64,000 bases of DNA from Candidatus Omnitrophota bacterium (GTDB taxonomy: Bacteria > Omnitrophota > Omnitrophia > Omnitrophales > Aquincolibacteriaceae): the NCBI GenBank assembly GCA_030698625.1, contig JAUYMS010000042.1:92150-156149 (forward strand), read 5' to 3'. Positions 1 to 64,000 of this stretch are shown here, one piece after another (within the stretch, counting starts at the first letter, position 1; the number at the start of each line of letters is the position of its first letter). A program made the position numbers and the translations under genes. The notes beneath the pieces were generated by a model, which was not told the DNA's origin, made no database searches, and saw only the letters and a program-made list of their open reading frames with translations.

Positions 1-3000
1 CTTGCGCGCCGAGGTCTTGAGCATTTGCGCGGCGTTCCGGTCTCCCGATTCAAGTTCGAGAGTTTTCTTTTCTCCTTCGCCGTCCCTGTAGATGGCGCCC
101 TCCGGCTTCTGCAGGTAGTACCCGCCCATTAAGCGCACCTTACTCTGTCCCACGAAATAGCGCTTATCCGGTGTATCGTATTTCATTCTTAATTCGGAAC
201 GCGCTTGACGACTCGCGCCGTAGGCTTGCGGGTGCACGTCGGCAAAATCGGGGTATAGGTCGGTGCTTCGAGATACCAGAGTATGGTACCTCTCCATGGC
301 AAAAGCAAAATTACCCTCGCCGGAGCGCAGCAGATCGCCCGCACGAAATGGCGGCTCCCCCTCACTTTCGAGAAACTCTGCCGCATCCAGTATCAGCTCC
401 TCGAGCTCAAGCGTAAGCATTTCTACCTCAAGGTGAAATGCTTCACGCTCTCCTACGGGAAAATAAATGCCGGGAACCGGCGTGCGGTTGTACACCGCAA
501 CGACTCGATCTCTAAAATCGGCGTTTCGCTCGGAAAAATTCTCAACCTGCTGATGGGCACGGACGTTCAAGGCCGCGGTCGCATCGCCCGGCCGCGAAAC
601 AAGGCGGCTGTCGTAAAGGGCCATGATCTCTTCCCGCACGCGCTTGCGCTCCTTGTTCAGCTCGGCCATTCTGCGCCCCACGCGTCTTTGGAGGATGGTA
701 CCGGTCAAATACCACAAACCGGATAAACCGAGTCCTACAGCACTCATAACCACATCGATCCAAACCGGCCAGGCGATCATCTGCAAGGCCCTTCCCAATA
801 AGAAAATAGCGGGAAGCGATACCGCCGCAAGGAGGTGCCAAATACTCGGTTCCTCAAGACGCCGCACGCCAAATGAGGCCAACGTATAATGCTCGCGGGC
901 TTTGGCCATTTCCGCGGTCAGCCTTTGCGCCTTTTCGCGCAATGCACGGGCCGTCCCTTTCGCAGCGGCCTCGTCTACTCTAAGCTCCGAACGCTTCTTC
1001 TGATAAAAACGAAAGTCCATCTCGTGATAGGCGCGTGCCTCTGCGAGGAGTTCACGCACGAGAGCTTCCTGCTTTTGGCTCCAGCTAACGTTGCGATAAC
1101 TCTGAGCAGATCGATCAAGCGATGTCTCTCTGGCCGTCAAGGTCTGCAACATATCCGTCAGGGTCTTATAAGCAAATGCGGAGAATCGCCCGTAGCCCTG
1201 CCGCCGCCGTTGGTCTTCGTTGCGCAAGCGGTCAATGGCGGCCTGACGCAAAGCCGAAAAATTCAATCGGCTCAGCTCACGTATATACCGATTGGTTTGG
1301 CCGGCAACTTGATCAACGAAGGCATCCCTATCAAAATCGGGTTCGTTTCTGCGCCGGCGCTCCTCCACTTTTTCCAGCCGGCCGCCGACCACTTCCCTGG
1401 TCTTATCCTTTTCAAAATCAAAACGATCTCCGTAACCGGCCCGTAATTCTGACCGTGCGGGGAGGACTTCACTGACTCCGTCATCAATCTCTTGCTCGAT
1501 CCGCTGCAGATCATAACCGACAGCGCTCGCCGCATTGGCCCTTTTAAACATTTGTACAATGCCCCGGATGATGGAGACGCGCATAGTGCCGTAGACCACA
1601 TCATGGGCCGCTTCGATATTCTCGGGGATGATCCCCATGTGCGTCGGCTCCGGGGCCACAAGGGTTCCCATGTCCACGAGTTTCAGTTCCCCGGAAGGTG
1701 TGATACGAAAACTATCCGGCTTGAAATGCTTCACCCGCCGGCCGAATATACCCACCGTCAACTTCTGTCGGCCGAGTTCCAGCACAAACTCCGCGAATCG
1801 GCGCGAAAAGTTTTTCGCATCGAAGTCTGCCGGTTTCGCCAAAGCCTCTGAGACCGGCTGGCCGTCCACGTATTCCATGAGCATTGCCGCTGCCCGAACA
1901 CGTTCATTTCCAAACATTGCATTAAAACGGTAAAGCCGCTCGATCTTGGGCACATACCCCGTAGACTCCATGGCAGCTCCTAAGACCTGATCTTTTTCCA
2001 GTAAGTGCACAATATTTTCAGTCAAAATACGGTTGATCTCTTCCGCTTCACGGAAGCCGTAGCCGGTCCGAACCTTGTACCCGATGGGGACTTTCAAAGC
2101 CTTTTCCCCGCCCGCGGCATCTTTCACCAGATAGACCTCACCTCGCTCGCTTTCTCCCAACACACGCACAAACTCAAGCTCGGCATCAATCGCCTTAACA
2201 ATGGCTCCGGCATCAGCCGCTTCGATCGGCCATGCATAGTTAGACGCCACTTCACCGGCCCGTAGTTCGGAGCGGTGAGGAGCGTCAACGCTTGGCACGG
2301 GCACGGTCATGCGTTCGCGCGCACTTGTTTCGCCTAGTGCTTCCGGATACAAGACAACGTCGACAACGGTTTCGCCGGTCGCGGTTTGCCGCGGACGCAC
2401 GCGGTAGATCGGATCTCCGGCAGCGGTACTCGCATGGGCGCTCGCATTGAGCTGCGCAGCAAGACCCGGGCGGTCAGGCAGTAGGGGCGCGATCACTGAG
2501 AGAATCGTTCCGACTTCGGCCCCATAGAGCCAGCGAAGGTTGTCGAACAATTGCTTGCGCTGCGCCAGGCCGTGCGCCAAGGAAGCGGTTTCCATCGTGG
2601 ATCTTGTGAAGATATTAGACGCGTCCTGCAGAACGGCAGCGACATAGGCTTTCTGGCCGTCTTCGGCTTCGCCGAGCCCGATTTTCGGAGAAACCACTGC
2701 ATAGCTATAACCGCTGTCTTCGAAAAATTCACGGAAAGGCTCCTGGTGGAAACCTCCGGTGATGACGACCGCCTTTTCGAGTTCGAGTTCTTGCATGCGC
2801 CGGGCAATGTTCTCAGTCATCTCGGCATCACGCTTTTTCACCAGGCGATAAAACTCCATCGCTTTTTTGAAAAGCGCGTCGAGCCTGTCGAGGCTGTCAA
2901 AACGTGCTTCGCGAACACGCTTATCCGCGTTCAGCGAAAGAAAACGAGCGGCAACGGCTGAAGGCCGGATCGCGCTCCCCTCGCCGCCGTTCAGCATGAT

Positions 3001-4194
3001 CGCATCATATTCTGCCGGGGTAAGCTCCAGGCGAAACAGCTTCTGCAGCAACCTGTAATCTGTGAGCAGCCGGACTAAGGACTTTTCTTCAGGCGAGACG
3101 GCAAGGGTGTCGGATAGCCGGCCGATGAGCCGCTCGGTCTCTGCCATCAACCGGTCTGCCTTGAGTTCGCTTTGGAGCAGGAGATGCCCCACAAAGAATT
3201 TCACATTCGGATAGGCCTCATAATTAAAGTTGGGCGGAAGAAGCGCGACCAAACTCTCGATGAGATTGCCCGTCTGGGGCTCGGGCAAATGGTGCTGGGT
3301 CAACCCCATGCTCAGAAGGCTCTCGACTTCGTCAACAACAGGACGGCGGTCGGCACGAATCACAAGCCTCCTGACATCCGCCAAAAAGCGGTCCCGTTCT
3401 ACGGGGAACTCTGTCATGTCGATCTTGGATTCGAATTCCCGCAATTTAAAGATCCTCAAAAGCTGGGGCCAGTCGATCTGCAGTGCCGGGTCCGTTAAGT
3501 CTAGGCGAAGCTGCTCTTTCGCCTGCGCTCTCAGAAGCTCCAGCCAGTCGGGAAGGGACAGAAATCCCTCATCATGAGCTGCCAGCTGTTTGAGAAACTG
3601 GCGAAGTTGTACATTTAAAAAATGTCCCGACAGATACCGGATCTGACTGTCCATGCCCTGCACGAACTCCGAACTTTCCTCCCTTGCTTTAAGTACGGTT
3701 CGAAAGGCGTCACGGTTGGCAAGATAAGTCGAAAGGGTTTCAATGCCGTAACCTTCCGCTTGGGGTTCGTCGATAAGAAAGAGTTCCGGCGCCTTTATAA
3801 GCGCCTGTTTGGCTAAATGATCCGCAATAGACTTTGTCAGGGCCGAATCGTCGGGGAAGATTCTCAAGATCTCGGGCTCAAGCTTGAAGGCCGTTCCCTC
3901 CACAAAAACAGTATTGATGTCATAGGCCGTTTTGAGATGATGAAGAATCGTTTGGATATTCTTCTGCGCTTCGTAGTTACCGTGAGCCGTTTGAACGTGA
4001 ATCAGTGTGGGGCCGTTGCCGAGATGGAACCTGTCGACTGTTCCGAGCTCCGCGGGGATTTCGAGTTGAAAGTTCGGGGAAACACGGACTTCGGCTTGCG
4101 CGTAAACCATAGCGGCGGCATAACTTTGCGGCGCTGCAACAAAGTTACTAGCGAAGAAAATAATTGCCGTCAGCCATGTTGTGATTTTTAACAT
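1..4194 (-). CDS. Large secreted/membrane multidomain protein, 3' end beyond window start (>=1398 aa visible). It has an N-terminal signal peptide, a protein-kinase-like domain, two TM helices and four RSELR motifs.
   Basis: Manual translation of the minus strand from ATG at 4194 (RBS GAGGGG about 10 nt upstream) is stop-free down to nt 1. 4194 is divisible by 3, so the frame exactly fills the window edge. It is absent from the ORF track only because it has no in-window stop. The N-terminus MLKITTWLTAIIFFASNFVAAPQSYAAA looks like a signal peptide. Confidence 0.7.
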   Translation of the reverse strand, partial: MLKITTWLTAIIFFASNFVAAPQSYAAAMVYAQAEVRVSPNFQLEIPAELGTVDRFHLGNGPTLIHVQTAHGNYEAQKNIQTILHHLKTAYDINTVFVEGTAFKLEPEILRIFPDDSALTKSIADHLAKQALIKAPELFLIDEPQAEGYGIETLSTYLANRDAFRTVLKAREESSEFVQGMDSQIRYLSGHFLNVQLRQFLKQLAAHDEGFLSLPDWLELLRAQAKEQLRLDLTDPALQIDWPQLLRIFKLREFESKIDMTEFPVERDRFLADVRRLVIRADRRPVVDEVESLLSMGLTQHHLPEPQTGNLIESLVALLPPNFNYEAYPNVKFFVGHLLLQSELKADRLMAETERLIGRLSDTLAVSPEEKSLVRLLTDYRLLQKLFRLELTPAEYDAIMLNGGEGSAIRPSAVAARFLSLNADKRVREARFDSLDRLDALFKKAMEFYRLVKKRDAEMTENIARRMQELELEKAVVITGGFHQEPFREFFEDSGYSYAVVSPKIGLGEAEDGQKAYVAAVLQDASNIFTRSTMETASLAHGLAQRKQLFDNLRWLYGAEVGTILSVIAPLLPDRPGLAAQLNASAHASTAAGDPIYRVRPRQTATGETVVDVVLYPEALGETSARERMTVPVPSVDAPHRSELRAGEVASNYAWPIEAADAGAIVKAIDAELEFVRVLGESERGEVYLVKDAAGGEKALKVPIGYKVRTGYGFREAEEINRILTENIVHLLEKDQVLGAAMESTGYVPKIERLYRFNAMFGNERVRAAAMLMEYVDGQPVSEALAKPADFDAKNFSRRFAEFVLELGRQKLTVGIFGRRVKHFKPDSFRITPSGELKLVDMGTLVAPEPTHMGIIPENIEAAHDVVYGTMRVSIIRGIVQMFKRANAASAVGYDLQRIEQEIDDGVSEVLPARSELRAGYGDRFDFEKDKTREVVGGRLEKVEERRRRNEPDFDRDAFVDQVAGQTNRYIRELSRLNFSALRQAAIDRLRNEDQRRRQGYGRFSAFAYKTLTDMLQTLTARETSLDRSAQSYRNVSWSQKQEALVRELLAEARAYHEMDFRFYQKKRSELRVDEAAAKGTARALREKAQRLTAEMAKAREHYTLASFGVRRLEEPSIWHLLAAVSLPAIFLLGRALQMIAWPVWIDVVMSAVGLGLSGLWYLTGTILQRRVGRRMAELNKERKRVREEIMALYDSRLVSRPGDATAALNVRAHQQVENFSERNADFRDRVVAVYNRTPVPGIYFPVGEREAFHLEVEMLTLELEELILDAAEFLESEGEPPFRAGDLLRSGEGNFAFAMERYHTLVSRSTDLYPDFADVHPQAYGASRQARSELRMKYDTPDKRYFVGQSKVRLMGGYYLQKPEGAIYRDGEGEKKTLELESGDRNAAQMLKTSARK
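187..201 (-). other. RSELR motif codons (QARSELRMK) in the truncated large protein.
   Basis: Reverse complement cgt tcc gaa tta aga = R S E L R, in frame with the 4194 ORF. Confidence 0.8.
979..993 (-). other. RSELR motif codons (KKRSELRVD).
   Basis: Reverse complement cgt tcg gag ctt aga, in frame. Confidence 0.8.
1441..1455 (-). other. RSELR motif codons (PARSELRAG), C-terminal boundary of the kinase-like domain.
   Basis: Reverse complement cgg tca gaa tta cgg, in frame. Confidence 0.8.
1456..2259 (-). other. Eukaryotic-like protein-kinase-like domain (about 270 aa) bracketed exactly by two RSELR motifs.
   Basis: Gly-rich loop LGESERGEVYLV, putative VAIK-like lysine in EKALKV, HFKPDSF (degenerate HRDLKPxN) and LVDMG (DFG-like), seen in the translation. 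The catalytic motifs are degenerate, so it may be a pseudokinase. Confidence 0.45.
2260..2274 (-). other. RSELR motif codons (PHRSELRAG), N-terminal boundary of the kinase-like domain.
   Basis: Reverse complement cgc tcc gaa cta cgg, in frame. The plus-strand 17-mer ccgtagttcggagcggt is shared with giant-gene motif copy 8 at 37847. Confidence 0.8.
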
Positions 4195-12541: not shown

Positions 12542-12542
12542 T

Positions 12543-15085: not shown

Positions 15086-15088
15086 CCG

Positions 15089-17067: not shown

Positions 17068-18066
17068 CTATGCCGAAACCTTCAGGTACTCGTCAATCTC
17101 TTGAATCAACTTCTTGCTATCACTATATATCAGGACATTATTCCTACCCAGGGACTTTACGGCATCAATACCCAGATGCTCCGGACATATCGCACCAAAA
17201 AGGATCTTCTTAGTGGCTTCGTCGGCGTAAAGGTCTCGATACAGTCCCGCGATATCCAGCACGGTTGTATCTTCCCAAAACTGGCCTAAGATCAATTCGG
17301 GTTTCTTTTCCTTAGCCAGCTTCAATACCCCGCTCTCGTTGACACCGTTGATGACCGAGAAACCCAATGACTCCAGATGCTTTTTGGCACTTTCAAGTAT
17401 AAAATCTTCAGCGGCAACAACCACGGCTAACTTTCCCCGAGCGGCGGAGTTAGCTTCCTGCGCTCCGGACGGCTGCGCCGTTTCCTCAACGGGTAAAGGA
17501 GGGGCGTCATTACCGAGTGCCTCTGCCACTTTGGTTAAAAGGACGTTAGATGAAACCGCCTTATCCAGAAAGGCAAAGACGGCCCAATCCGGAAAATAAT
17601 CCTTAAAACTCTTTCGGGCTGACATGACAATGACGGGTATCTTATCCATCCCTTCGACCTCAACCTTGAGTTTTGCCAACAGCTCGTAGCCTGTCATTTC
17701 CGGCATAAGCACATCCATAAGGATGAGATCCGGCTTTTCCGCTTTGACCCTATCAAACCCTTCGCGACCGTTGTCGGCGCGCGTAACCTCATAGCCGTGT
17801 TTCCTGAGATCAAACTCCATCAAATGAGCATAACTAGCGTCGTCTTCGATGAGCAGGATTTTTTGATGGTTGCCTGCCGGCACAGACTCCGCTTGGCCGC
17901 CCTCGGATGCGACAGCCTTCTGTGCCCCTGTTGACGCGGCGTCCTTAGGTTCTTCTTCGCCGCCGGCCTGGGCGTTGCACCGCGAGCAGAACATCTCAGC
18001 GGGAGATCGCGGCTCAAACGACGAGCCGCACGTCATGCAATTCTTGGAAATTTTTTTGTTCGCCAC
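17068..18066 (-). CDS. Response regulator with N-terminal C4 zinc ribbon, REC domain and a second receiver-like domain.
   Basis: 332 aa. CMTCGS...CSRC, then KILLIEDD...LILMDVLMPEMTGY (phospho-acceptor Asp), then a second CheY-like domain. Confidence 0.8.
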   Translation of the reverse strand: MANKKISKNCMTCGSSFEPRSPAEMFCSRCNAQAGGEEEPKDAASTGAQKAVASEGGQAESVPAGNHQKILLIEDDASYAHLMEFDLRKHGYEVTRADNGREGFDRVKAEKPDLILMDVLMPEMTGYELLAKLKVEVEGMDKIPVIVMSARKSFKDYFPDWAVFAFLDKAVSSNVLLTKVAEALGNDAPPLPVEETAQPSGAQEANSAARGKLAVVVAAEDFILESAKKHLESLGFSVINGVNESGVLKLAKEKKPELILGQFWEDTTVLDIAGLYRDLYADEATKKILFGAICPEHLGIDAVKSLGRNNVLIYSDSKKLIQEIDEYLKVSA

Positions 18067-18069
18067 GGA

Positions 18070-20588: not shown

Positions 20589-20810
20589 CTACGCTGTGAC
20601 TTCGACCACTTTTTCTTTTGAGCGATGCCCCGATACGAGCGTCAGGCAGGACTTTGGAAGATCGAGATGTCCACTGAGGGCTTCAAGAACGGCCTTGTTA
20701 GCGCGGCCTTCGTTGGGGGATGCTTTCACCCACACTCGGAAGTGCGTCGGATCAACCTCAACAACTCGAACTTGCTTCGCGTTCGGTTTCGTCTGTACAA
20801 ATAATTTCAC
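20589..20810 (-). CDS. DUF167 (YggU-like) small protein.
   Basis: 73 aa. GRANKAVLEALSGHLDLPKSCLTLVSGHRSKEKVV matches the YggU family pattern. Its stop overlaps the HK start. Confidence 0.55.
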   Translation of the reverse strand: MKLFVQTKPNAKQVRVVEVDPTHFRVWVKASPNEGRANKAVLEALSGHLDLPKSCLTLVSGHRSKEKVVEVTA

Positions 20811-26095: not shown

Positions 26096-26118
26096 GAAGA
26101 TTTTGATATAATAACCCC

Positions 26119-60100: not shown

Positions 60101-63100
60101 CTTACGTTGATATTTCCCGCCACCCGCCCCCGCCAGGACCAGGTAGGTATCCCGCCCCGCGGTCCGGGCATAGGTCTCAAACCCGTCGATTGTCTCGACA
60201 ACGCCCTTCCCCTCGACCATGCGGCCTACATAGAGCAGGACATCCGATTTCGGGCGATCGATTTCCAGGAGGGCTTTCGGCAGTTTTTGCGCCCCGGCGA
60301 GCTTGTCCGGGTCGAAGAATTCCGTGTCCACTCCGTGCGGAATGACAATAATTTTCTCATCGGGCAATCCGTATAAAGCCTTTGCCTTTTCGGCGTGATC
60401 CGGTGTAATCGCGACGAAGTAGTCGGCAAGTCCCACGGCTTTTCTGAAGACATGTTTAACGTGCTCGGGAAAATCTTCGTCAAAAATAATCTCCATGTTG
60501 TGACCGTGGATGCCAAAGAAGATCTTCTTTTCTTCCGACTTATTGTTGATCTCCTCTGCCACGGACGCAGCGGCCAAAGCAAGAACACCCCCGTGATGCG
60601 CATTTAAGACAATCTTCTTATCGGGCGAACGTTCGAGGATGGCGGCAACACGTTCTCTGACGACTTTAACAGCGGCCAAAGCGTAAGCCTCTAACTGTTC
60701 TTCACTCATATCTTTGAAGGCCACGGTCTTCGGCATCGTAGGGTGGGCGTCGAAAAGCGGCACCTCGTCGAGTTCGATCAGAGACACATCAAAGGGAAAC
60801 TCTTCCGGCTTCGTACCCTTGAGCGCTGTCGAAACAACCGCGCTTTCGATTCCGTTCTCGGCATACCACTCCGGCACCGTGGTGACATAGGTCATCGTGC
60901 CGGAACCGCCGGCACGGCTCGGCAGGTAAATAGAGATGTCTACAAGGGCGAGATCTTCACGGGCACTGTTAATCAGTTCACGCAGAGGTAACTCCGGTTC
61001 GTCGGCAGGCAGCGCCTCTACTACCGGTTTCGCAGCCGCTTTGACCTCAACCCGGTAAAGTGGTAGCTCCACCCACCTATCCGAAGAAGGCCTGATGTAA
61101 TCAATCGGTCCATACCAACCGCTCCCCGCTATCCAGACAAGGGTCCCGTTAGAAGACCCCCGTTGATGGGTCCCTATGTCGCCGATCAAGAGTTTGTGCC
61201 CGACAATTCTTACGGCCGCATGATCCCGCGAGACATCGCCTTGATACATGACGATATCGCGGTCCGTGTAGCGGCCCACAGTCACCCTGGCCGATTCCTG
61301 CTCTTCACGATAGCCAACATGCAGGGCCGGGTCGGCGGGAAATTTCCCAACATAATGGCGGGTCCCTTCATCTTCGACAATTTCAACCTCACCGCTTTCC
61401 AATTCCTGAACCGTTAGAGCAACACTTGAAAGCTTAAACCGCCCTTCGCGCACAACCGAACTGCGCTCCTGAATTCTGGGATTTGCAACACGACCCACCA
61501 GAATCTCCGCTTCCTGCAGGTCGTGCTGCTCACGCGCCTGTGCGAACCACCAAGGAACGGCATAACGGCGCTTATGCAACTCAAGACCGGTCGGTGTGAT
61601 GCCTGTGCCCCGGGCAGTATCGCGCAACCTCACGAATTCTCCGTTTGCATTCACGGCAAGATCGAGCTTAAAGACCCAATCTCTGACATCATCCCAACCC
61701 GATGCCGGAACCGTCGCTATGTCTCCGTTCGTAATACGCTTCTGGATTTGCCCCGCCAGCGTTGGATGAAGATCGTCACCGGCCTCGTTCAGAGTCTTGA
61801 CGATCCAGTAAGGATGTCCTCCTCCATCGACCATGAATCCTTCGAGACGCTTCCACTGGCCGGCTTGTCCCTCCTCCGCAATCTGAGAATGGGAAATGCT
61901 CTTATAGGTCATGTAAACTTTCCCTTTGTAACCGATCACCACAAAGTAGCGAACCGCGCGCTTTGCCCCCTGCAATTGCCTGCCGTGCGAATGTCTCTCA
62001 AAAGCCTGCTTAAACATAAGCACTTTATCTTCCTCACCGCGGCGGCCCACCTCGTCTGTGAACGCGTCTAAATCCTCAGCCTCCGAAACCTCCATATCCT
62101 CATCGGTAACCGTCAAGCGCGGCACCGGCAGCTTTTCCTTTTCGAACCGCTTCTCTCCTGTGTGAAGTACCCGGTAGCGACCGATGAAGATATTAAAAAA
62201 TTTAAGATACTCACGGAGTGAGCGGAAACCTTCAATGCGCTTCTGGACAGACTCGTCATTCTCAATCAGGTACAGGAGATTGAAATACCGGGCCATGACC
62301 AGACCGGGGGTTTGCCCATATTCATAAAAGTAGTGCGTGACTGCCAGTTTAAAGTCAGCCAGAAGATCATCATCGAGATACCGTAGGAATTTCCTCGCTC
62401 CGTTATCGAACAGATAGGTTCTCGCCTCCTCAGAAATCGTCTTCCGCGCGTCTTTGATGTCGCGGAGGATATCCCTAGGCTCGAAAAACTTGTCGTCACC
62501 TACCTGAAACCGCAGTTGGGACTTTTCGAACTCATAGAGAATATCCAAATCCCGTTCGCTGCCGAGCAGGCCCTGCAGATAAAAGCGAAAGGCCCGAAAT
62601 AAATTTCTCGAGGCGGCCTGATCGACGAGGCTGCCGTCCGACTCCTCATTGGGGATAATGTTGATACTCTGGCCGAGATCTTCATCCGGCTCCACCTCAA
62701 CCCGAAAGCTGCGGCGATTCTCAGCAATGGGGAAGGCCTTCGCATAGCGGTCGAGTGCCTGTTGAATCTTCACATTCACTTGATCCGGCTCGTCATAGTC
62801 GGAGGGCATCAACTGTGTCACGGTAATGGAGTCATAAACCGACTCGTCAGTCCTGAATACTTTTTCTGCTTCGTCAACTAACAGCTGTTCCCCTCGCGCC
62901 CGAATACGCGCCGCCTTTTCCAACTGTTCGATAAACTCCTCGTCTTCCTCACGCAACAACCGCTGCACCTCTTCCTCGGGCACAAGCTCGCCGTTTTCCT
63001 CATAGCGAATCTTACCCTCGACGTCAACCTCGTATTTGATGCCCTTGTAGAATATTTGCGTATCATCATCCGAGCGCAATTCCGACCGCACTTTGCTGTT

Positions 63101-64000
63101 GCGAACGACCGTGGCTAATCGATTTGAAAGGCGCGGGGCGTAGCGGTGGAACCGGATATTGACGGGCCGGCCGCCGGAATCATTAAAGGTCGCGGTACCA
63201 AACTCGCCCGCGAGCTCCACTACCGCCTGCTCGACGCCCATTGCGGCGAGTTGCGCATCGGAGGCATAGGTCAGCGGCAGGCGATTCCCTTCGACCGTTC
63301 CGAAAGAGCCGTCACCGAAATATTGCGGGGTTTCATATTTGCCTTCAAACCGGCGAATCCATTCCTGAGCCAGCGCTTTCCCGCTCTCGCCATAAATTTC
63401 CACGAGCGCATCTTCGATACCGCCGTAAACTTGTTGGCGATCATAAATGCGTATGTCGCGAAACCACAGCGGATCGATATCACGCTTGCGGCGCTTGCTA
63501 TAGACGTCCTCTTCGTGGCTCAAGAGCGAAAACACGAAGTCCGCGGTCTCCAGGGCCTTGAAGGTGCGCGCCGTAATCAAATGCAATGCGTCGTCGGTAT
63601 TGTTGGCAACCCAGTCCCCCGATTCGAGACTGGCACCATTCTCGAAACCGTCGATACCGCCCTTCACGTCCTCACTACCGATCGCTTTTTTACCGTTTAG
63701 CTCGTAATAGACCGTGAGAATCTTAATCATTTGCCGTTTCATGAGGCTTGATTGCTGTGTCGCCATCCAGGAAGTCTGGGCAGGGTAGGGATTCCGGAGA
63801 AGGCCGGTTTCGTCGGCACCGTTGATTTCGACAACGTCTTCGAGATACTCAAGCGAAAACATGTCAAGACCGCGCGCGCGGCCTAATTCATAAGGCTTCG
63901 CGACATAGTCCGCCCTGAGGCCGTGCAAGACCCGGAGATTATCGTAAATTTGAGCCACTGCCGGACTGTGCCCGAGGCTTTTCGGCACCACCAGGACAAA
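36140..64000 (-). CDS. Giant multi-enzyme protein, 5' partial (>=9283 aa in window; the frame is still open at nt 64000).
   Basis: A single stop-free minus-strand frame of 27,852 nt ends at TAA 36140..36142. Sense codons FVL precede the first in-window GTG at 63991, so the N-terminus lies beyond the window. The translation contains recognisable catalytic motifs of more than 12 enzyme families and nine RSELR motifs (see the other features listed here). Confidence 0.92.
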   Translation of the reverse strand, partial: FVLVVPKSLGHSPAVAQIYDNLRVLHGLRADYVAKPYELGRARGLDMFSLEYLEDVVEINGADETGLLRNPYPAQTSWMATQQSSLMKRQMIKILTVYYELNGKKAIGSEDVKGGIDGFENGASLESGDWVANNTDDALHLITARTFKALETADFVFSLLSHEEDVYSKRRKRDIDPLWFRDIRIYDRQQVYGGIEDALVEIYGESGKALAQEWIRRFEGKYETPQYFGDGSFGTVEGNRLPLTYASDAQLAAMGVEQAVVELAGEFGTATFNDSGGRPVNIRFHRYAPRLSNRLATVVRNSKVRSELRSDDDTQIFYKGIKYEVDVEGKIRYEENGELVPEEEVQRLLREEDEEFIEQLEKAARIRARGEQLLVDEAEKVFRTDESVYDSITVTQLMPSDYDEPDQVNVKIQQALDRYAKAFPIAENRRSFRVEVEPDEDLGQSINIIPNEESDGSLVDQAASRNLFRAFRFYLQGLLGSERDLDILYEFEKSQLRFQVGDDKFFEPRDILRDIKDARKTISEEARTYLFDNGARKFLRYLDDDLLADFKLAVTHYFYEYGQTPGLVMARYFNLLYLIENDESVQKRIEGFRSLREYLKFFNIFIGRYRVLHTGEKRFEKEKLPVPRLTVTDEDMEVSEAEDLDAFTDEVGRRGEEDKVLMFKQAFERHSHGRQLQGAKRAVRYFVVIGYKGKVYMTYKSISHSQIAEEGQAGQWKRLEGFMVDGGGHPYWIVKTLNEAGDDLHPTLAGQIQKRITNGDIATVPASGWDDVRDWVFKLDLAVNANGEFVRLRDTARGTGITPTGLELHKRRYAVPWWFAQAREQHDLQEAEILVGRVANPRIQERSSVVREGRFKLSSVALTVQELESGEVEIVEDEGTRHYVGKFPADPALHVGYREEQESARVTVGRYTDRDIVMYQGDVSRDHAAVRIVGHKLLIGDIGTHQRGSSNGTLVWIAGSGWYGPIDYIRPSSDRWVELPLYRVEVKAAAKPVVEALPADEPELPLRELINSAREDLALVDISIYLPSRAGGSGTMTYVTTVPEWYAENGIESAVVSTALKGTKPEEFPFDVSLIELDEVPLFDAHPTMPKTVAFKDMSEEQLEAYALAAVKVVRERVAAILERSPDKKIVLNAHHGGVLALAAASVAEEINNKSEEKKIFFGIHGHNMEIIFDEDFPEHVKHVFRKAVGLADYFVAITPDHAEKAKALYGLPDEKIIVIPHGVDTEFFDPDKLAGAQKLPKALLEIDRPKSDVLLYVGRMVEGKGVVETIDGFETYARTAGRDTYLVLAGAGGGKYQRKVRARIRRLPEALRDKVIFLGFVPQTKLPQLYGFADALIHMSEDEVLTRVILEAWAMGKPVIATDIPGIRASFDPRYAERPFPISDLGMLVNADRRDFDVAMGIKNVLSRAEAGQFNSRIMRNHVIANFSKDRTLRNNLELYHKTAGTMPERSELRTEQQDELLPDKPVAEPPLRVAPIKAFKDYPAPAKWWLRFYRIFVRYFVRLTGIENLPEGDNYIIAANHISTLDGLVLVTELYLRTGRLPLFVARPSEVGKLQQVLIRKGLAIEVDENVRWEGVAGLEFPADQVAAILKDYPQKPHFIASLHAGSQVYDLRKPDMIREAGILPGDALTMTLLGNGAERAMRDILLLLRAESLSGKQLQEAVAGPSGTFDKVQAAVRAGESLAFFPLGRAEIQPGAMIDEWKRDWHGTFARIAVNEGRFVIPTQISGETRIVTFFARWRAARARYVLAKRKYKIKAKKGRAAGEDRHELDKRSKVLREKRGEFFSQLFSRLSPLSLRIHLGRPIDPRGREAEEVFEETVEQIAEGLTGATINGITFEPRSAEPAAVAVTDYNELREHLRRLRDQKGRPVEVLVGVGTQGGIDLALRGPLATWTEVDWARRALQEGLAKYYVYVPAGAGRFGKKPPRVWTLSAESRFFKPRVVTLRRKYWTAAFEALLGAETFVAVHERAFLKSGPSWAWSRTWPFLSRIAPPRVLSENLGQHTDRLRRLFEAYDLKLSDDAVYLKPEESFAPAEYAEALSAHLHDLARTISDLRYLRRARREMDRAGALTVDEVLDRQAFRIYSRFAPRPDSHPTSAEAMLARLEPGTVIDVRAPDRDAAQLFIFTGRTLKGSAAEGEEEVLHFAPYVPYGSSPAPHLPVAQSRLTDVFEPSRTVILPSTSLFQARGPSPIEISDGSQRSELRVEWQRDLLADHRLLYRTSQEILAGLTAPMAPSQARVIQVNLGRRQVGPNIYFNFGAHLSGKVQFLNQHIADGDFFVRTMVSPDLRNVLFIGYRHNSDHVILMSKGGATETLAIPSTGRISLKTLTKQPLSKVFMKNVLRNYYDNADNRLSYLRAQLTREINVRTVGDSARHIIYPDARLNFVLPNFGRDKWTNLRPVRVGESGPTGQHPTALLMKTTTEDFPDLLAKTVIPNYLFVPVLDEVRVYDEKRLLAIHSENKVREYDERGRETVRERTAELGAKQISVSFGSVLARSPYAVANDIRIAFWRLRDEASRVERVIDLREGLTRRIFKVSGLSSELMRDFRSVLDGKAFARFDKQLGELVRAMRYGREEYATHLKQTFELVRKELALSVDPRARTMSAFLEQHGREIVGIAMPTRRELSEVAISPETNLQSEELRKKREIVEMIEELNVLLSDEDVLPKELYGEQSLYAFMIFRRLAGIEYDDSMHEGVLEPIVRQMLKIATAYPELYPDGHLPPESLQATTHPRHVHNRVRFIKHLRMASEGYGGEDTAITIHPFLRYMLTMLGLRMEVPELAREAVLLSGHFKGLTRDERIALVNSLFERVLVERGRIPVRRVVVEALGNLGADLDEENRNRMISKLKLVYEEPEADPIVQYAILKALARLDDFTIIERLLYQEDPTVNRGLLIRALRELGEVRTPQVFDFLVKAIDFTEDDGLVHAALRAMREQRSGAAVEFLTRVTFGDDKVMRDYALGELSKADFRAAGVLAVHNLNADPARFAQTQLDDAIVESVHVITNFLRAYQSERLTPKEEDLAVSILEALAKFESPEPLLEINPDIYVVLIRWADYVSKTERSVDVRMAAQKAFDRLSAPLDTVENRDTLHIRTAARYLNHLSKRDLRDDQIALVVEAMETLAEYSDPIRMLEVSPDVLYTLTVYYDHPVARIRHAARRAFEAIGDPIIEKTISLDETLPLEGMPSLGMIQAAFPTEEELDAVDDEALTERFLATKRQIIANLKSIEQKIRDGVIQPYATLRVHEGQAMSASKPQSQVHLGVFGGTFDPTHWGHVAFALRVMDELNLDGIVFFPMGDIEGYKEAKSPAGNRYFMAHQTADLFRPLFHSSPLGVSHPEWGSATLGLNLFELNPGVSLELSVLAASDSLESSARNVQRALTEINLSWDNFQKVSLVTTERRDFPLAEAATTLEITQRRGEVSRGVVAGISHDLPVYVVGRETGGISSTEVRDNPKAKIFVPRTVAEHMTRRKLYPFPAAPARGPTSDLDRLLSKLNRTAFLTEREAIFREIRELAGIESVNVVLKTPHGPRRELTVPWSEHPGLRSAVVERLAHFSFNLLIDNHSTSLQVEVTHGRDTEKQITAGIEAHLHRTHTDRLSFAMPEVSPVNVQAASDADEGPRKVKQEQQLPGLIEPYPEGLFIGVDVGAYSIKLAALKDGRIVREEVQRHKGIIGGAVFVGEVADVVQKFVESFGEEPKRVVVLLPGQNDGYENRNFGFLDRFWTDDDRQRARGLYDKLKEFLGDVPLNLFNDVQGVAAGIVKENPTIFEPGTGTANVLWWGTGVGRAVIRNGSVVLDSVYRGMTLTGQTSPIGKMAGRPEHIQYFAGTPILQQRAKALGFEAEFEGLSIEPLMTAAVLGWAKREKGSPLTNDEVIAARLMDKAAEAMAEHIIESTRINGIAMWVLGGGNLQGDFGATFHEKIGGQIRRKDSDSSYTLKASDHGRELGARGAAYTAAALEQTQGRYFIAMRSELRVDDDQVPEPGVSRDGTRAAGRQWVFASAVIAAAAAALTAAQIAGLWLPLTALGVIITGFAILSAEARLNRWLYQKVSQHYMNLGRPIPVASWIDRWRRAPGFIAVPEEDGLISDFNLALKGPLSFRESWLFLLIKIGSRIHVTLESRLLRSKVTSLNFIRFNLLTLTKILSFPFAMAAAALESVVSSNESRNRPTGESHWYPMMPRERLRERQDEKKMLPEIQAFDRGVIELAGRTLTENGASGIFIMVPTYRYSPNTKNVVSNIAEGIQKHYPGRKATILLTGESERATEFADMLEESQSRVPENEDVHVVGHVKPDRFRGKGWSLRAGLLMARILFPKEADRPGVFLILDDDIRNTTPEWIPAFLEPLYQDKDLTVSSYSARKYEDDDRSLKDHFVTPFFSAWVGKRLLEAEGEYGIRQGALLDALLDDYSIWSYAFPEFFFIPKATKLGKQMQGINIKVKEHDWVPHPYNRFPNYVQAFFDFTLRQPWLADQDELTEVVRHDIEGIRTEEFINIEPERFLENFRFEFPQERETYEGLVPAATFQKLSALAAEGSSFESAGRFSAREWAEVVFLFLEAYRDSHPDRRRGLAPALTPLLKLRIASFTHEVQSENLPFAEVKRRLNLQTDEFVRRRDIFLVHEYEKSLSRFRGAKTIGKKHQAIAHLGLSMARKDLITVRLTIRHTQGSLGQEEVVVPRRLFTDANQELLDYFGGLLAYQAELRGMRAVDVELSGDLDISEDSLRTAIRTHFESVYQTPAYHANFSQPVAWGADAVQGTEGYDYKPKKPSRSKDGIAIGVDLSADSIRVLAFDGEEPIYTQEISVRRLEGRIGEGVRTVLLDTARHIGISDRELQSMAITVGVPGLVHPEGIILDLPQLGRDHPDAQESLEELKSEYPHLTFENSANLAGLYQGRDIAHGLFVQTTFRTGLGLSILNDGELIASPLEAHLKYDFSGDSDFCRCGLQGDLYTVSSPIGMIESLQKRLAAESGANPLPERIRKNIQEMKTAADVPRIIRQLEELLENPSEAVRDYTRQIFVEMGRGLGSLYAEIARVYDEDKLTVHRAGWISRDLVHDAVSAGIQDYLTNEAPQVAIEDLSGKIPSSNISDSWHGAAAAALLGSRIQLGAEIQVVVTEKIPRKMLVTGGTGVLGNGLVKHFLAEGHDVQVLVRTDSPRAENLPEHENLKRVDGDLLSNASLSRLTEDNDIVYLAGAMTEKTAQRAEDEAVVIAVNGFSADRVVRLRDRAGRTEKSRVVFISSQVVYWTGGQITAVLDESMIPVPPKEVNDWINQVIAEYEARQEEFDADDDLHETLVKWLEQFIRSHPIPAEVYPYKLAKMIGERLLEKRDNVVIVRPTSFFGKKDTSSNHPIPEAIRPIFKGYQGRFAGYTRDYVHLSDAVAVLEEISQLPKIIRGEHDIINIASGYNYAPADVLRAVKMLRVLSEEETSRLSVDPPSKVMNPPVFDNRRALALLGARGPHRFRRLEEGLREQLEELRRVETGQRSELRAVTFRDRFFEAQSIAVQRTLFEKNILMENHPTSVFLNGLLQRLIRTHEARVAVIDDKEENAFASAAGQIYITTGMLKILDTEEEVLAVLMHELRHIERSHRFKRGDLDPFDIYGFGIWRLNEFEADLAMLWELNQRGVNPIGALTFKRKWSARVAQKSAEEQAKGDEAMPTGAVGLDPVHGSMEMRYSNLREFVRFIHLDKLSHDVHPIDWDALRIDDTIPSEIPEGFVEDLVKAEPARFWNQFGHLVRHLSRDQWTEAVLTFLRNQNLGFDEEGENVLLLMLHDIVLHRSEGFLFPGDDEVYEVTREEFVEYFTPERVARMMEARIFERIGLPLAPEELLGLSEQAMRSAMDGKKYEEFKEAFPALAKLRQKAAEAYEQRFGDAREFLISWDTRLMGVYVRTQLIHGKAAYQIGDVEVMTRWSDTPKIERMVMFQDEIPFDAVDTNEIKTFMTEMSVNLIDAERFMERILISLDVRKIMSAQINYEVDDKEVQKLRSNMRILMNATTQHMVSQLDRRELTVMERADMILALGANVTRLAGDAGERMAQLRERSRRRPGQGGVTFDWGLFAQEATTEFSSRFEKIMEEVNAMSADDLRQALLDWYGSLDPTTDREKRMRELSEFLYGYLEAKNHWSIRFSARKNDKWRQFYMPEMKKVILLDLFRQPFRREFVSTLNRRLSTEKTGVLNQVDELMAWLEDAIARRNRAQIGESWTIGLEERSRLSSVLKGVKQKTLSRMAHLSEQGETEAMLVEAIRVVNQWGIAFVNMPRLEYEKDWRRISTSLMAQLRQKKDYPQTPEDFEGLLAVSLLSQESFSAMSLATIAFREMIKRSKDFDEAAAYLQKYSYLPRTILREGLYVLSEEKTKSHEDMEVMKKWFWEQVDRLLETGSDVMLLEIAHTLVRFIKPGDRLPFFLEAISTRQSDEGFKKYMARKWWRAFTSETMELSNIESVAHLAYYGELKARTPTLGRADSKEQEEAEENASRLDSANFEAADMIRDIRYLSMIFFDEFYPALYRLDTVVIYLMIRSIMLDGENALLYSKKAKRSLVQHFINQYVEVGKAKKARQVANDITETIATDMDAQDIFYFLGPALSQVSLQVPKDRYPNDGIEDMLFRDYVKHLETKGFEHIADEAQFPETHRLIRTRIRTFITGVRGQLRRTEDGVGLNVFFPRDVPYVHFEDAAMEKMADMNLVTERKSFSEKVSPIELAVEVSKHAGSLAVTLLQLAGMYFELSNDDQEKIADVFDAVRGMNKLQAYMILEEEAKKNPKYAPLFKGIMEWGEYVGGGSIVTVFRNVDEDGNEWADGITNPNAAYRAGELHQFGHQLLDGLIKRGKKRGAEEVKFYEFLKILLDKAKTRVESEIDDPDYHAKNKEFSAQTHHDSQRADKFRPANGLPQKLFVPGVQETHTALLRREKFVHGTSFNEFLTKVSKGETTVTAADQASAKGVVSVLVQNFFYQLFETGIVHSDIHPGQFLQMEGDWIAYLDRKNLQVLDDIDRELIRSVILNPLLENSDAAYNQVITHLLGGEQPAKAATLKHEIINRYRRKDIGGSLSAIIFHIESSGIEIPMKWVYVAKNFKALNRMARMADFGNFLDAFVYKPGAASETFTLMRGLETVPQALPRTAEWLEAELGPDWVSQLIEFASLVRSELRSPDLSDLSDGYDGPVYRLRSLRALIEDVIPERETILEVVNKWTPAIAVLGGARVPPDHPYYKLGVKLGKMLYKKGIPPRTGAGPGEMEAPMLGYLQAKKLYEMTLFFTSLFNVMTGIVLFILSPSFISVFGWMVPSLIPATLFVLLIPALILYVKYRTLPTQGIRILLPWEQTTNPYTQIVKSYERFVTRKIALHENILGSIFLPGGVGTHDELFEFWRRRRPVALLGKDFWQPLMDEFFATIEREGISEQLGYRSDPPLITDDPEEAVNFILAEAKTNPPHRTTQREVEKINEEIKQGLQTLSRQKRVVMMAGRPHRENGKLNIAEKIASYVSELDEVFIRGASTGRLYNRLRDRSKQQGWSDKFQAVLHDASENHQLREFLAADKEFFGDRHIIVDDESNHQLLMTYNAYAYVFLPGAVGTFNRLFDIVQLMQTAKVTKRPILLVGRSFWEPYLKEFETRLLRREDGLQFIAPKDMQLFRIVDEDNLGETLEYLEEEILFQRFEESIREAKAKKQLLDFDEAYYGRLHREGSSIDLKAPRRIERAKKSVHSFGFLPDTSQAKLMYSDAANLREAEALAHYLTHEKRFSKKLIGRLMRFYRGSEFIGSESELVAPQPKDLIDRGVPKVFVDFFVARGLDLADGLFLSALVDAAEIYAKKIIRERSELRAEDWPGALKRAIAANDPDEFSGLLANLREALPDSAQALIEEAFWPETRGLLDSLAKAFDAQRIATLKIIVAGLSEFEPTLANIARVRFVITEDLPQHARTDTGVGKLAAEILRALWERFIVMPLPYKPQPLPEGLSETMQEPGMIIGKRIELIREARGKKKGETASAAGIPSNTYSPVERRDALPTKSGTVLKLGEALLVDPIAFITGIEDLDEALRDLPLSERIYDLRVRLGMTQLDMVYTLREAGFVFTDRHGVPIQDEERIKEMGPTVAQWEKGAIPSPETWGIIAQVLKYPPLFEGVVWKGGTSFTGNVQTERPKPKSKKKKKKTAKSTKAFLPTTEIEKADSREPAPAVEHEVVEEFEELVFDDTTEELVPESEVKKRQEPSGETPDDSERSELRSDYVVPDIKKMLAERNIGTFHEHLLGSNPHQSTVPDDETLLDTLGIKEGDKVLTIAGYLGDWAAELSRRGADVVYTDINPGIVEWVRDNRAGNFNFAAGEDLSARFRVGDPLKEPVAKGDVDWTFSYEPLPLDPDEWPILMLRSLLNRKGLIMVSSVGESDGTGSQLTEFAKIYGLGGKISIDEFNLVESYPENDFEKRIAYVRASSGGPNSSPELSFRNGNPYTIFTLRTNPELRAKAELDIAVMEALQSFGGRGFEAMLDHVADQGFDLDAEALRDSVQRLTRFSHLLSEEYRKPVQAETQVPAFIDILKSEFADKKKLRILDVATGKGEFLIRLKALLEADGTFEFELVGNNSGFDFENRLKLDAYGIETVPGRIEEVIETGQLGEEPFDLVFLNATDGVDLRTESVRRLMSTVAPGGMLSWRFMRGFNMGENLSRYLLLEAIDLGLPYSVMNGAPEGMPVGAAQFSELVPPIFIKHSGQQFAHPYLQRRADEHAAEEFDFDDDPYRSELRSMSQMMIQAQKPTYAQKQLMKTLQLQIQKMEEEDPVPPNAAKGLRALQTADRILKERGAVGIVIGSIAPDLWNQRVQAKDLLRHKDVDVVVLSPEFKLRDDFEGGIDWWLPEQKTLKVRSAGTVSMSDIPTEFWVNANDIYLRAGIEYDVADVQPGLYLPSRDFLIDYTGRVVMNSINPRAVDIDGDVIEKFWEKLDRDLRKGLSGIWRENFNKRSRVLDAGIRVFEKFDFEVGVAIARDFIDVGRRDYEPVLEQLLGQGEIPDGSERSELRVADELLTAQGERIFHGPRAQILPRRLEEHSTEALVTLLSGLLNRAVYSERAGIMPQTTESTILTKLGQGRVVMTPRFNEKMQQQVADMGQVLIDSVWIERLIEKSPRTLYLLFRALDQFEKQHPGAKPLVGILGSDDILERVLKRAFLKRDNGIHWQEEQDAGDLFTLPRLNTLVNVVAVEHVASYVGESEAGVATLLSDRNVLPENIGTAANFIVDPQAADRGDFEGLAFLAVALLEPAKLIRGVKDPLEQAALLDQHIEDIFPNARSKGDAYLVDLGKYIEESLIREELIDISA
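37031..37045 (-). other. Giant-protein RSELR copy 9 (aa 8983-8987, SERSELRVA), about 300 aa from the C-terminus.
   Basis: Reverse complement cgc tcg gaa ttg aga, in frame. Confidence 0.85.
37847..37861 (-). other. Giant-protein RSELR copy 8 (aa 8711-8715, PYRSELRSM), after methyltransferase 2.
   Basis: Reverse complement cgc tcc gaa cta cgg. The 17-mer is shared with the copy at 2260 in the other large gene. Confidence 0.85.
37900..38470 (-). other. Class I SAM-dependent methyltransferase domain 2.
   Basis: Motif I LRILDVATGKGEFLIRL, then FDLVFLN and GGML. Confidence 0.55.
38750..39330 (-). other. Class I SAM-dependent methyltransferase domain 1.
   Basis: Motif I VLTIAGYLGDWAAELSRRG and post-I acidic residue ADVVYTDINP. 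Confidence 0.55.
39389..39403 (-). other. Giant-protein RSELR copy 7 (aa 8197-8201, SERSELRSD), before methyltransferase 1.
   Basis: Reverse complement cgg tcc gag ctg cga, in frame. Confidence 0.85.
39600..39650 (-). other. Poly-lysine linker (KPKSKKKKKKTAKSTK) encoded by an (AAG/AAA)n tract.
   Basis: Plus strand cttcttcttctttttcttggacttaggctttgg, a low-complexity charged linker between the SLOG region and the methyltransferases. Confidence 0.7.
40589..40603 (-). other. Giant-protein RSELR copy 6 (aa 7797-7801, RERSELRAE), after the second SLOG domain.
   Basis: Reverse complement cgt tct gag ctt cgg, in frame. Confidence 0.85.
41200..41700 (-). other. Second, more divergent LOG/SLOG-like domain.
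   Basis: VFIRGASTGRL and YVFLPGAVGTFNRLFDIVQL (degenerate PGGxGTxxE). Confidence 0.4.
41830..42500 (-). other. LOG/SLOG (TIGR00730-like) Rossmann domain with an inserted double-TM segment.
   Basis: AIAVLGGAR, TGAGPGEMEA and FLPGGVGTHDELFEFW (PGGxGTxxE) motifs. A hydrophobic insertion LFFTSLFNVMTGIVLFILSPSFISVFGWMVPSLIPATLFVLLIPALIL lies between them. Confidence 0.55.
42596..42610 (-). other. Giant-protein RSELR copy 5 (aa 7128-7132, LVRSELRSP), between ABC1 and SLOG.
   Basis: Reverse complement cgc tcg gag ctt cgg, in frame. Confidence 0.85.
42700..43420 (-). other. UbiB/ABC1 (aarF) atypical-kinase-like domain.
   Basis: IVHSDIHPGQFLQ corresponds to the ABC1 catalytic-loop motif HADPHPGN, with an upstream Lys-containing block. 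Confidence 0.55.
47100..47560 (-). other. HExxH zinc-metallopeptidase (M48/M56-like) domain starting immediately after RSELR copy 4.
   Basis: LAVLMHELRHIERSH is an HEXXH motif flanked by hydrophobic residues as in M48 peptidases. A third ligand, NEFEADLAM, sits about 30 residues downstream. Confidence 0.5.
47561..47575 (-). other. Giant-protein RSELR copy 4 (aa 5473-5477, GQRSELRAV), between the epimerase and the HExxH peptidase.
   Basis: Reverse complement cgc tcg gaa ctt cgt, in frame. Confidence 0.85.
47800..48690 (-). other. NAD-dependent epimerase/dehydratase (extended SDR) domain.
   Basis: KMLVTGGTGVLGNGLVKHFLAEGHDVQVLVR Rossmann motif and the later NDIVYLAGA. Confidence 0.65.
49000..49730 (-). 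other. ROK-family sugar kinase domain.
   Basis: IAIGVDLSADSIRVLAF phosphate-1 motif and the ROK zinc signature C-x-C-G-x2-G-x in FCRCGLQGDLYTV. Confidence 0.65.
50800..51500 (-). other. GT-A-fold glycosyltransferase-like domain (GT2/GpgS-like).
   Basis: GIFIMVPTYRYS, GKGWSLRAG and the acidic DxD-type motif in VFLILDDDIRN. Confidence 0.45.
51880..52030 (-). other. Transmembrane segment pair within the giant protein.
   Basis: WVFASAVIAAAAAALTAAQIAGLWLPLTALGVIITGFAILSA is strongly hydrophobic. Confidence 0.6.
52100..53110 (-). other. ASKHA-superfamily (BadF/ROK/sugar-kinase-like) ATPase domain.
   Basis: Phosphate-1 motif LFIGVDVGAYSIKLAAL and later GGG-rich motifs (WVLGGGNLQGDFG). Confidence 0.5.
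53800..54260 (-). other. HxGH nucleotidyltransferase (cytidylyl/adenylyl-transferase, NadD/TagD-like) domain.
   Basis: VHLGVFGGTFDPTHWGHVAF is the G-x-F-D-x-x-H-x-G-H signature of class I nucleotidyltransferases. Confidence 0.7.
55100..55750 (-). other. HEAT/PBS-lyase-like alpha-helical repeat region.
   Basis: Repeated about 30-aa units (VRRVVVEALGNLGAD, DPIVQYAILKALARLDD, DPTVNRGLLIRALRELGE, DGLVHAALRAMRE). Confidence 0.5.
57383..57397 (-). other. Giant-protein RSELR copy 3 (aa 2199-2203, SQRSELRVE).
   Basis: Reverse complement cgc tct gag tta aga, in frame. Confidence 0.85.
58950..59560 (-). other. Lysophospholipid/glycerol-phosphate acyltransferase (PlsC-like) domain.
   Basis: HX4D motif in YIIAANHISTLDGLVL, plus the downstream FVARPSEVG and VIPTQISG blocks. 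Confidence 0.65.
59636..59650 (-). other. Giant-protein RSELR copy 2 (aa 1448-1452, PERSELRTE), between GT4 and the acyltransferase.
   Basis: Reverse complement cgc tct gag tta aga. The 17-nt tcttaactcagagcgct is identical to copy 3. Confidence 0.85.
59720..60650 (-). other. GT4-family (GT-B fold) glycosyltransferase domain.
   Basis: KKIVLNAHHGG N-lobe and the C-lobe LLYVGRMVEGKGV ... SEDEVLTRVILEAWAMGKPVIATD (E-x7-E motif). Confidence 0.7.
61130..61330 (-). other. FHA (phosphothreonine-binding) domain within the giant protein.
   Basis: GDVSRDHAAVRIVGHKLLIGDIGTHQRGSSNGTLVWIAG matches the FHA core pattern (SR.HA.I....D.GS.NGT.VNG). Confidence 0.65.
63074..63088 (-). other. Giant-protein RSELR copy 1 (aa 302-306, KVRSELRSD).
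   Basis: Reverse complement cgg tcg gaa ttg cgc, in frame. Confidence 0.85.

Follow-up and report, generated by a model that had tools for sequence, protein, structure and literature searches.

Two giant proteins punctuated by one pentapeptide

The stretch of DNA analysed here, a 64,000-nt section of contig JAUYMS010000042.1 from a Candidatus Omnitrophota bacterium (hereafter the window, to which all positions refer), contains two very large open reading frames (ORFs) on its minus strand, whose products carry 14 exact copies of the pentapeptide RSELR. The larger, G (36140..63991), has 9283 visible residues, and its frame is open at the window end, with the N-terminus outside. The smaller, K (1..4194), is numbered from the ATG at 4194 and has 1398 visible residues, its C-terminus being cut by the window start. 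In a six-frame translation of the window all 14 copies lay on the minus strand, ten in G and four in K, with none in other frames or in the other 29 ORFs (9574 aa), and no variant with one mismatch occurred in either protein. The first-pass annotation, made from the letters of the window, had counted 13 copies; its four in K stand, and its nine in G fell one short, the copy at aa 3965 (52085..52099) having been overlooked.

G is a chain of 11 modules with the ten RSELR copies between them, and it holds at least 11 distinct domain types. Pfam and NCBIfam recognized FHA, GT4 glycosyltransferase and PlsC-type acyltransferase domains, and also HEAT repeats, a NadD-like adenylyltransferase, two ROK-type kinases and an NAD-dependent epimerase; further domains are an M48 peptidase-like region (aa 5526-5579, E = 3.6e-9), an ABC1/UbiB kinase, two LOG/TIGR00730 domains, an HTH and a methyltransferase. 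The copies start at aa 302 (63074..63088), 1448 (59636..59650), 2199 (57383..57397), 3965, 5473 (47561..47575), 7128 (42596..42610), 7797 (40589..40603), 8197 (39389..39403), 8711 (37847..37861) and 8983 (37031..37045), and all of them fall outside the domains, so that the placement between domains described at first reading holds against the profile coordinates. For example, the full-length GT4 profiles end at aa 1440-1441, seven residues ahead of the copy at 1448, the copy at 5473 stands directly ahead of the M48-like region, and the one at 7128 opens a double-LOG module common to the protein of locus L018 described below. Several segments of G contain two or three domains, and the word is thus absent from some domain boundaries. 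Two hydrophobic hairpins, each of two predicted transmembrane (TM) helices, were called by a Kyte-Doolittle scan only, one at aa 3993-4031 (51899..52015), beginning 28 residues after the copy at 3965, and one at aa 7236-7286 (42134..42286) within the LOG module.

K begins with a putative signal peptide or anchor, MLKITTWLTAIIFFASNFVAAPQSYAAA (4114..4194), which was recognized by eye without a predictor, followed by an N-terminal domain at aa 40-525 (2620..4077) that proved to define a protein family. Its first RSELR copy (aa 641; 2260..2274) stands directly past this domain, and the remaining three start at aa 914 (1441..1455), 1068 (979..993) and 1332 (187..201). The module between the first two (aa 646-913; 1456..2259) is divergent and protein-kinase-like, and the first-pass annotation had it bracketed by two copies. 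All 49 of the 49 PDB matches to aa 646-918 are indeed protein kinases (best PknA, E = 0.002), and Pfam found nothing in the segment, which leaves the kinase assignment a weak one. K also has a hydrophobic helix pair, seen by Kyte-Doolittle only, inside a module at aa ~1118-1170 (window ~685-840).

Both proteins are nearly devoid of cysteine. G has two in 9283 residues, both in the CxCG zinc motif of a ROK kinase (aa 4930/4932), and K has none in 1398, which makes 2 in 10,681 residues together, compared with 1.05% in the remaining ORFs of the window. The idea that the two Cys of G could form part of a cysteine protease was rejected, as both belong to the zinc motif, and Pfam and NCBIfam gave no matches in G to RTX/glycine-rich repeats or a cysteine protease domain.

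The repeated word is conserved as a peptide

The composition of G and K predicts 0.036 copies of RSELR (Poisson P ~6e-32 for the 14 seen), in keeping with the earlier estimate of far below one, and this rules out chance or composition as the origin of the copies. Internal paralogy as the source of the repeat was likewise ruled out, since blastp detected no similarity among the 16 RSELR-delimited segments, and so was the possibility that the word is common in related DNA generally, where 297 kb of other loci held only 6 stray matches to R[SA]E[LVIM]R. The codons behind RSELR vary, as had been noticed at the outset (12 distinct 15-mers among 14 copies, with wobble positions at 0.2-0.5 bits), and the peptide is fixed in an all-or-none manner, so that selection acts at the peptide level. 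The sequences around the copies are unrelated to one another and share a pattern only, which agrees with the first description of the flanks: small residues precede the word, S/A/V/T/M comes directly behind it, and acidic positions follow later.

G and K belong to a family of giant, cysteine-excluded proteins

An exhaustive HMMER search with K aa 1-645 retrieved, at E<=1e-3, at least 6711 cluster representatives, 737 of them at <=1e-30. The family counts below refer to the best 150 of these 6711 together with G, K and the L018 protein (455,919 residues). Nearly all of the best 150 matches carry the domain (the N-domain) N-terminally, in proteins of up to 7823 aa, and its signature, H.QTAHG ... 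EG ... TGGFH, follows directly behind a hydrophobic N-terminus; K has both, and hydrophobic N-termini recur throughout the family members. The N-terminus of G is out of view, but its last 296 residues (aa 8988-9283; 36143..37030) have homologues at the extreme C-terminus in 17-19 of the 150 N-domain proteins, which makes G a family member with its N-domain outside the window. This C-terminal domain returned nothing in Pfam, NCBIfam and PDB profile searches. By eye, the first visible residues of G (VVPKSLGHSPAVAQIYDNLRVLHGL..., aa 1-301, window 63089-63991) resemble an internal module of the family members P0001 and P0002 (FVIVVPKNVTHSPKVRQNYENLKELHAL...), which fits G running well upstream of the window; contig look-ups with window genes gave only short Logan contigs from the same sample, which extended neither K nor G past the window.

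Cysteine makes up 0.072% of the family set. On the contig of P0002, a second large ORF (L046:26638-29868) has a signal-peptide-like start and, cut at 1077 aa, contains 0 Cys and no R.E.R; cysteine exclusion thus extends beyond the proteins that bear the motif. G and K are accordingly paralogues in a large, hitherto undescribed Omnitrophota family of giant, cysteine-excluded proteins, whose architecture consists of an N-terminal signal peptide or anchor, a domain of ~500 aa, variable and shuffled enzyme modules, and a conserved C-terminal domain of ~300 aa. The first-pass annotation had noted neither this kinship of G and K, nor the scarcity of cysteine, nor the N-domain.

The word marks module boundaries across the family

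The pattern R.E.R occurs 1166 times in the family set, against 166 expected, and at least three copies of R-[S/A]-E-x-R are found in 102 of the 119 members of at least 1500 aa. Position 2 is mostly S (73-fold enrichment) or A (12.6-fold), and T or P are rare. The residues found at position 4 are L, V, A, M, I, S and T, with M/V/L/A enriched 10- to 34-fold. Lineages differ in the word that they use, the set including RSELR, RSEVR, RSEAR, RAEVR, RSESR and RTELR. RSELR is present in 12 copies each in P0002 and P0028 and in ten in P0125, RAEVR in 14 in P0061 and in all seven copies of P0146, RTELR in 14 in P0056, RSESR in 12 in P0149, and RSEMR in nine in P0044. The word may be uniform within a protein, as in P0002 (12/12) and P0125 (10/10), and G and K share one word in 14 of 14 copies; mixed proteins also exist, such as P0004 with ten RSEAR, seven RSEVR and three RAEVR. 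Members whose N-domains are more than 50% identical mostly use the same word, and those below 50% often use different ones. As the representatives share less than 50% identity throughout and only 36 had a clear dominant word, a comparison of position 4 with the N-domain for co-variation had no power.

The copies are also placed regularly along the chains. The first stands at median residue 616, directly past the N-domain, and only 4 copies occur within the first 520 residues across 152 proteins. Segments between copies have a median of 218 aa (interquartile range 113-430), and in 59 cases copies follow each other in tandem with short spacers of 17-40 aa. As Pfam found too few domains in three further family members for the placement of the motif to be judged from them, we used the boundaries of 705 homology blocks between different family members, leaving out the N-domain. 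Of these blocks, 152 contain a motif, compared with 361±24 under random placement; 260 start within 40 aa after a motif (81±13 at random), and 86 end within 40 aa before one (43±8 at random). The sites also keep their place between lineages, in that 225 of the 926 motif sites covered by a block align column-exact to an R.E.R in the homologue, with a differing word in 173 of the 225. The word is hence a family-wide, peptide-level junction signal at module boundaries that is under strong purifying selection, and the dedicated punctuation proposed in the first-pass annotation is strongly supported well beyond the two proteins in which it was noticed.

A delimited segment can equal a whole protein

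The correspondence between word and module is closest in s9, the module of G between the copies at 8711 and 8983 (aa 8716-8982; 37046..37846), which is homologous end to end to free-standing proteins. Scanning metagenomes with the final 1584 residues of G yielded 28 loci, all matching s9 alone and most of them free-standing ORFs of ~250-265 aa, and a database search added 52 further relatives (P0151-P0202), mostly of ~190-266 aa and unannotated. The N-terminal Met of the free-standing homologues aligns at the motif at 8711, and their C-terminus ends ~25 aa short of the next copy, which means that one RSELR-delimited segment corresponds to one whole protein. The s9 family has the conserved motifs GVLIGGLAE..W, HKDVDVLVL and FEGGIDWW. 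The N-termini of the free-standing forms (L020-L044; P0151-P0202) are often rich in Met/Gly/Leu and contain Cys, and part of the records of this family are labelled uncultured archaeon or Candidatus Pacearchaeota. Pfam, NCBIfam and PDB profile searches returned nothing for s9. A nucleotidyltransferase assignment, suggested by a GG...DxD pattern seen by eye, was not supported, as Foldseek gave no significant fold for the s9 model.

That model (AlphaFold, G aa 8680-9020 with 40 free-standing homologues) has a core at pLDDT 74-96, and both flanking motifs lie outside this confident core, at ~63 and ~51, values that are partly expected because the homologues leave the flanks uncovered. At locus L018 (2669-14485), s9 lies inside a complete ORF of 3938 aa that contains 0 Cys, ten copies of RAEVR and one of RSELR. 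The first 450 residues of this protein show homology to K (E = 1e-50), two of its modules have homologues in G that stand in changed order, and its single RSELR aligns column-exact with the copy at 8983 of G in an alignment that is 33% identical.

Word-indexed homologue searches gave nothing at 1e-5 for the C-terminal 1584 aa of G and nothing at an over-strict 1e-8 for aa 307-2203, in a database that seems to lack cut contig-end genes, so that these absences say little; a GTDB genome scan retrieved no relatives of aa 5400-7200.

The N-terminal domain is modelled with a TIKI-type fold

An AlphaFold model of K aa 1-605 with 12 relatives (pLDDT 77.5, pTM 0.65, confident at 45-520) gives the N-domain an alpha/beta fold with a parallel beta-sheet core of the EreA/ChaN/TIKI/TraB type, in which a helical insertion of ~300 residues separates the two halves of the fold. 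Across 152 sequences, H66, Q68, H71, E99, E152, R247, E352, R455 and H483 (K numbering) are invariant or nearly so. TIKI and RRSP, which share this fold, are site-specific endopeptidases. The TIKI/EreA superfamily has a catalytic set of 2His/2Glu, with a His-Glu pair at H85/E113 in Bcr135 and at H3902/E3930 in RRSP (PMC6254334). The spacing between H71 and E99 of K, 28 residues, is the same as in both of these pairs, the match being one of spacing and invariance.

What the junction word may do

Our preferred reading, and the best fit among the three mechanisms named in the first-pass annotation, is that the word is the recognition site of a site-specific endopeptidase which cuts an exported polyprotein into separate enzymes; we consider this an evenly balanced proposition. 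Judging by the hydrophobic N-termini, the giant chain would be exported behind a signal peptide or anchor; the word would be read by one specific partner and co-evolve with it; and reading would amount to cutting, a site-specific endopeptidase releasing separate enzymes at the junctions. The near lack of cysteine points the same way, as some bacteria are known to keep this residue out of the proteins they export. Two candidate proteases lie within the chain, the TIKI-fold N-domain (from the model) and the M48-like region of G. One step further removed, the protease might be the family's own N-domain, and a tentative and rather doubtful version of the proposal is that this TIKI-fold endopeptidase cuts its own operon-sized, cysteine-free polyprotein at R-[S/A]-E-x-R, position 4 co-evolving with the protease. 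If so, the family would constitute a cellular analogue of viral polyprotein processing, and the copies would provide a cleavage map of the largest known bacterial proteins. In this version, the junction word may also serve as a seam for the exchange of modules between giant genes.

Cutting itself is inferred from sequence, and several observations weigh against it. Roughly 15% of the long family members have fewer than three copies, and s9 is fused without any junction word in L017 (a 2918-aa ORF with 1 Cys) and in L019 (a 2226-aa ORF with 11 Cys, 0.49%). Nucleotide-dependent, cytoplasm-type enzymes are hard to square with export. In some copies the residue behind the motif is Pro (2 of 10 copies in the L018 protein), which speaks against simple cleavage behind the last Arg; cleavage ahead of the small residue at position 2 would fit too. 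In three distant RAEVR lineages the wobble bases are nearly fixed, for which peptide selection alone is insufficient. With respect to the N-domain as protease, its Foldseek match to EreC is not significant (E = 0.24), Pfam, NCBIfam and PDB profile searches returned nothing for it and provide no sequence link to TIKI or EreA, and its putative catalytic residues are matched by spacing and invariance rather than by structural superposition. The EreA/TIKI fold also includes esterases and a haem binder. At the fusion point in L017, the ancestral start Met of s9 can still be seen.

The strongest competitor, which we judge unlikely but well short of far-fetched, is that the word is a docking motif, as also suggested at first reading, that is never cleaved: the giant would stay whole, and each word would bind one partner (a chaperone, the export/translocation machinery, a scaffold, or the protein's own N- or C-domain) that organizes or threads the chain module by module. 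Against such a role stand the invariant His/Glu/His of the N-domain, typical of active hydrolases of the fold; the short-spaced tandem copies together with modules that equal whole free-standing proteins resemble precursor processing instead; and no candidate binding partner was identified.

Improbable is an assembly scar, in which modules were inserted or swapped in frame using or leaving a site of ~15 nt, of which the peptide would be the translation, perhaps co-opted later. The N-domains of P0061, the L018 protein and P0146, all RAEVR proteins, are less than 40% identical to one another, yet these proteins share one dominant 15-mer, CGCGCCGAGGTGCGG (CGC GCC GAG GTG CGG), in 7/14, 6/10 and 3/7 of their copies, respectively, with GCC GAG GTG in all seven copies of P0146; the same 15-mer would be expected at ~0.003 per site from codon usage. 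(These giants are located at L018:2669-14485, L045:923-17155 and L049:501-7877.) Across lineages, Ser at position 2 is encoded by TCN in 37 of 38 copies, the residues permitted there (S/A/T/P) are exactly those with NCN codons, the first Arg is CGC in ~62% of copies against ~25% expected, and the rare codons TTA and AGA are over-used at the RSELR copies of the window. The shared RAEVR 15-mer, this codon bias and the shuffling of modules between proteins fit a common DNA source, and the codon data suggest that the junctions descend from one or that some lineages bear an added nucleic-acid constraint. A bare scar would decay, however, and the word has not: wobble is free yet the peptide invariant in the window and in P0002 (RSELR), P0056 (RTELR) and P0149 (RSESR), where 12/12, 14/14 and 12/12 of the 15-mers are distinct, so that peptide-level selection is replicated in three more lineages and, in the window, a DNA-level layer cannot replace it. 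In addition, 15 nt is short for recombination, the flanking DNA is uninformative, the mixed-word protein P0011 has varied codons, and no recombinase is linked to the giant genes in the window.

An RNA or translation signal at the module boundaries, namely a pause site, a hairpin or a Shine-Dalgarno-like GAGGUG acting in co-translational folding or internal initiation, is very improbable. The sequence GAGGTG does match the Shine-Dalgarno complement (16S 3' end), and a hairpin of -7.5 kcal/mol can arise from the RAEVR 15-mer, synonymous recoding giving less structure than the real codons have (mean z of the latter -1.2 to -1.3 over 31 sites). Against this, RSELR in G and P0002 shows no hairpin signal (z ~0), wobble is free in four lineages, the loop bases of the RAEVR hairpin are fixed as strongly as those of the stem and its variants are uncompensated, and the feature conserved across the family is the amino-acid word. 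Finally, the first-pass proposal that the Ser is a phospho-acceptor for the kinase-like domains of the same proteins, for which the kinase-like and FHA domains of G and K might speak, is practically excluded, since Ala occupies position 2 in 197 of the 1166 R.E.R sites and in every copy in several proteins or whole lineages (e.g., the RAEVR copies of P0061, 14, of the L018 protein, 10, and of P0146, 7); FHA domains, moreover, bind phospho-Thr.

Relation to known systems and significance

Among the nearest known systems are the MARTX (multifunctional autoprocessing repeats-in-toxin) toxins. They are very large secreted proteins, as is proposed for G and K, and like these are poor in cysteine, with conserved terminal regions and shuffled enzyme or effector modules between them, and a protease in the same chain cuts the linkers between modules, which resembles the processing proposed here. 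One MARTX effector, RRSP, even has the TIKI fold modelled for the N-domain (PMC6254334). The differences are nonetheless considerable: the MARTX protease cleaves behind Leu, in linkers that are loosely defined, whereas the giants described here have an exact pentapeptide; their modules are enzymes of metabolic type, their host belongs to the Omnitrophota, and they start with a putative Sec-type N-terminus rather than carrying a C-terminal type-1 signal; and neither RTX/glycine-rich repeats nor a cysteine protease domain is present in G (2 Cys) or K (0). Viral polyproteins (3C, NIa and nsP-type) share the short, near-invariant word at the junctions and have a protease in the chain, with word and protease co-varying between lineages, as would hold here under the proposed reading; here the organism is cellular and the N-domain fold, if it is a protease, is unrelated. 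Within its own fold class, the N-domain differs from TIKI, TraB, PrgY, EreA and ChaN in having no detectable sequence similarity to them and in its added insertion. Multi-core precursors of ribosomally synthesized and post-translationally modified peptides (RiPPs), such as the cyanobactin precursor PatE, have repeated recognition sequences that flank each released unit, and gingipains cut after Arg/Lys at junctions. In the giants, whole enzymes of 100-1800 aa would be the units in place of peptides, and word and families are unrelated to either.

Giant genes of the Omnitrophota have been the subject of two preprints. Nielsen & Lui 2026 (bioRxiv 10.64898/2026.06.07.730766) described 'multi-enzyme metabolic cluster' giants with a signal peptide as well as TM helices, and G resembles their class 1 in its Omnitrophota genome and in the many distinct enzyme Pfams that tile one polypeptide; their text contains none of the terms 'motif', 'cleav' and 'cysteine'. 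In West-Roberts et al. 2023 (bioRxiv 10.1101/2023.11.21.568195), 'cysteine' is absent, 'motif' appears only in a cited title, and cleavage is discussed only as a possibility via C39/S8 domains, the authors stating that the cleavage points are unknown. Neither preprint refers to the recurrent junction motif, the cysteine exclusion or the conserved terminal domains, and both leave open whether the proteins act as a single chain or undergo cleavage. The only literature match to RSELR was the software name varSelRF. Within the searchable literature, the junction word and the definition of the family are thus new, and viruses, MARTX toxins and RiPP precursors already exemplify the principle of a recurrent site in a polyprotein.

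In practical terms, the lineage-specific word gives exact coordinates for module boundaries, 14 in the window and ~970 copies in 153 members, which are the first concrete candidate positions where Omnitrophota giants might be cut, and it accompanies a family of thousands that can be defined by its terminal domains, its cysteine exclusion and a TIKI-fold domain (as modelled) with invariant residues of catalytic type. Should cutting occur, the family would represent a bacterial polyprotein system whose protease is specific for a pentapeptide, a potential new pair of sequence-specific protease and site, and would bear on how tiny, host-dependent cells deploy many enzymes outside the cytoplasm. 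Even as a docking signal, the word would help in annotation and in structure prediction, as it allows the giants to be divided into their modules.

Neighboring genes and origin of the DNA

A neighboring KorA gene is 64-75% identical to genes in metagenome-assembled genomes (MAGs) of Candidatus Omnitrophota, and the DNA of the window is also present in the Logan assembly of SRR13727534. Between the giants, on mixed strands, a Logan gene table lists a sugar-nucleotide and peptide-modification cluster (24511-28708) with RmlD/epimerase-like, SIR2, Peptidase_Mx, ATP-grasp (D-Ala-D-Ala-ligase-like) and dTDP-sugar isomerase genes. Two adjoining response-regulator paralogues and two PAS-HisKA-HATPase histidine kinase paralogues are found at 17068-19023, 20807-22252 and 28752-30185.

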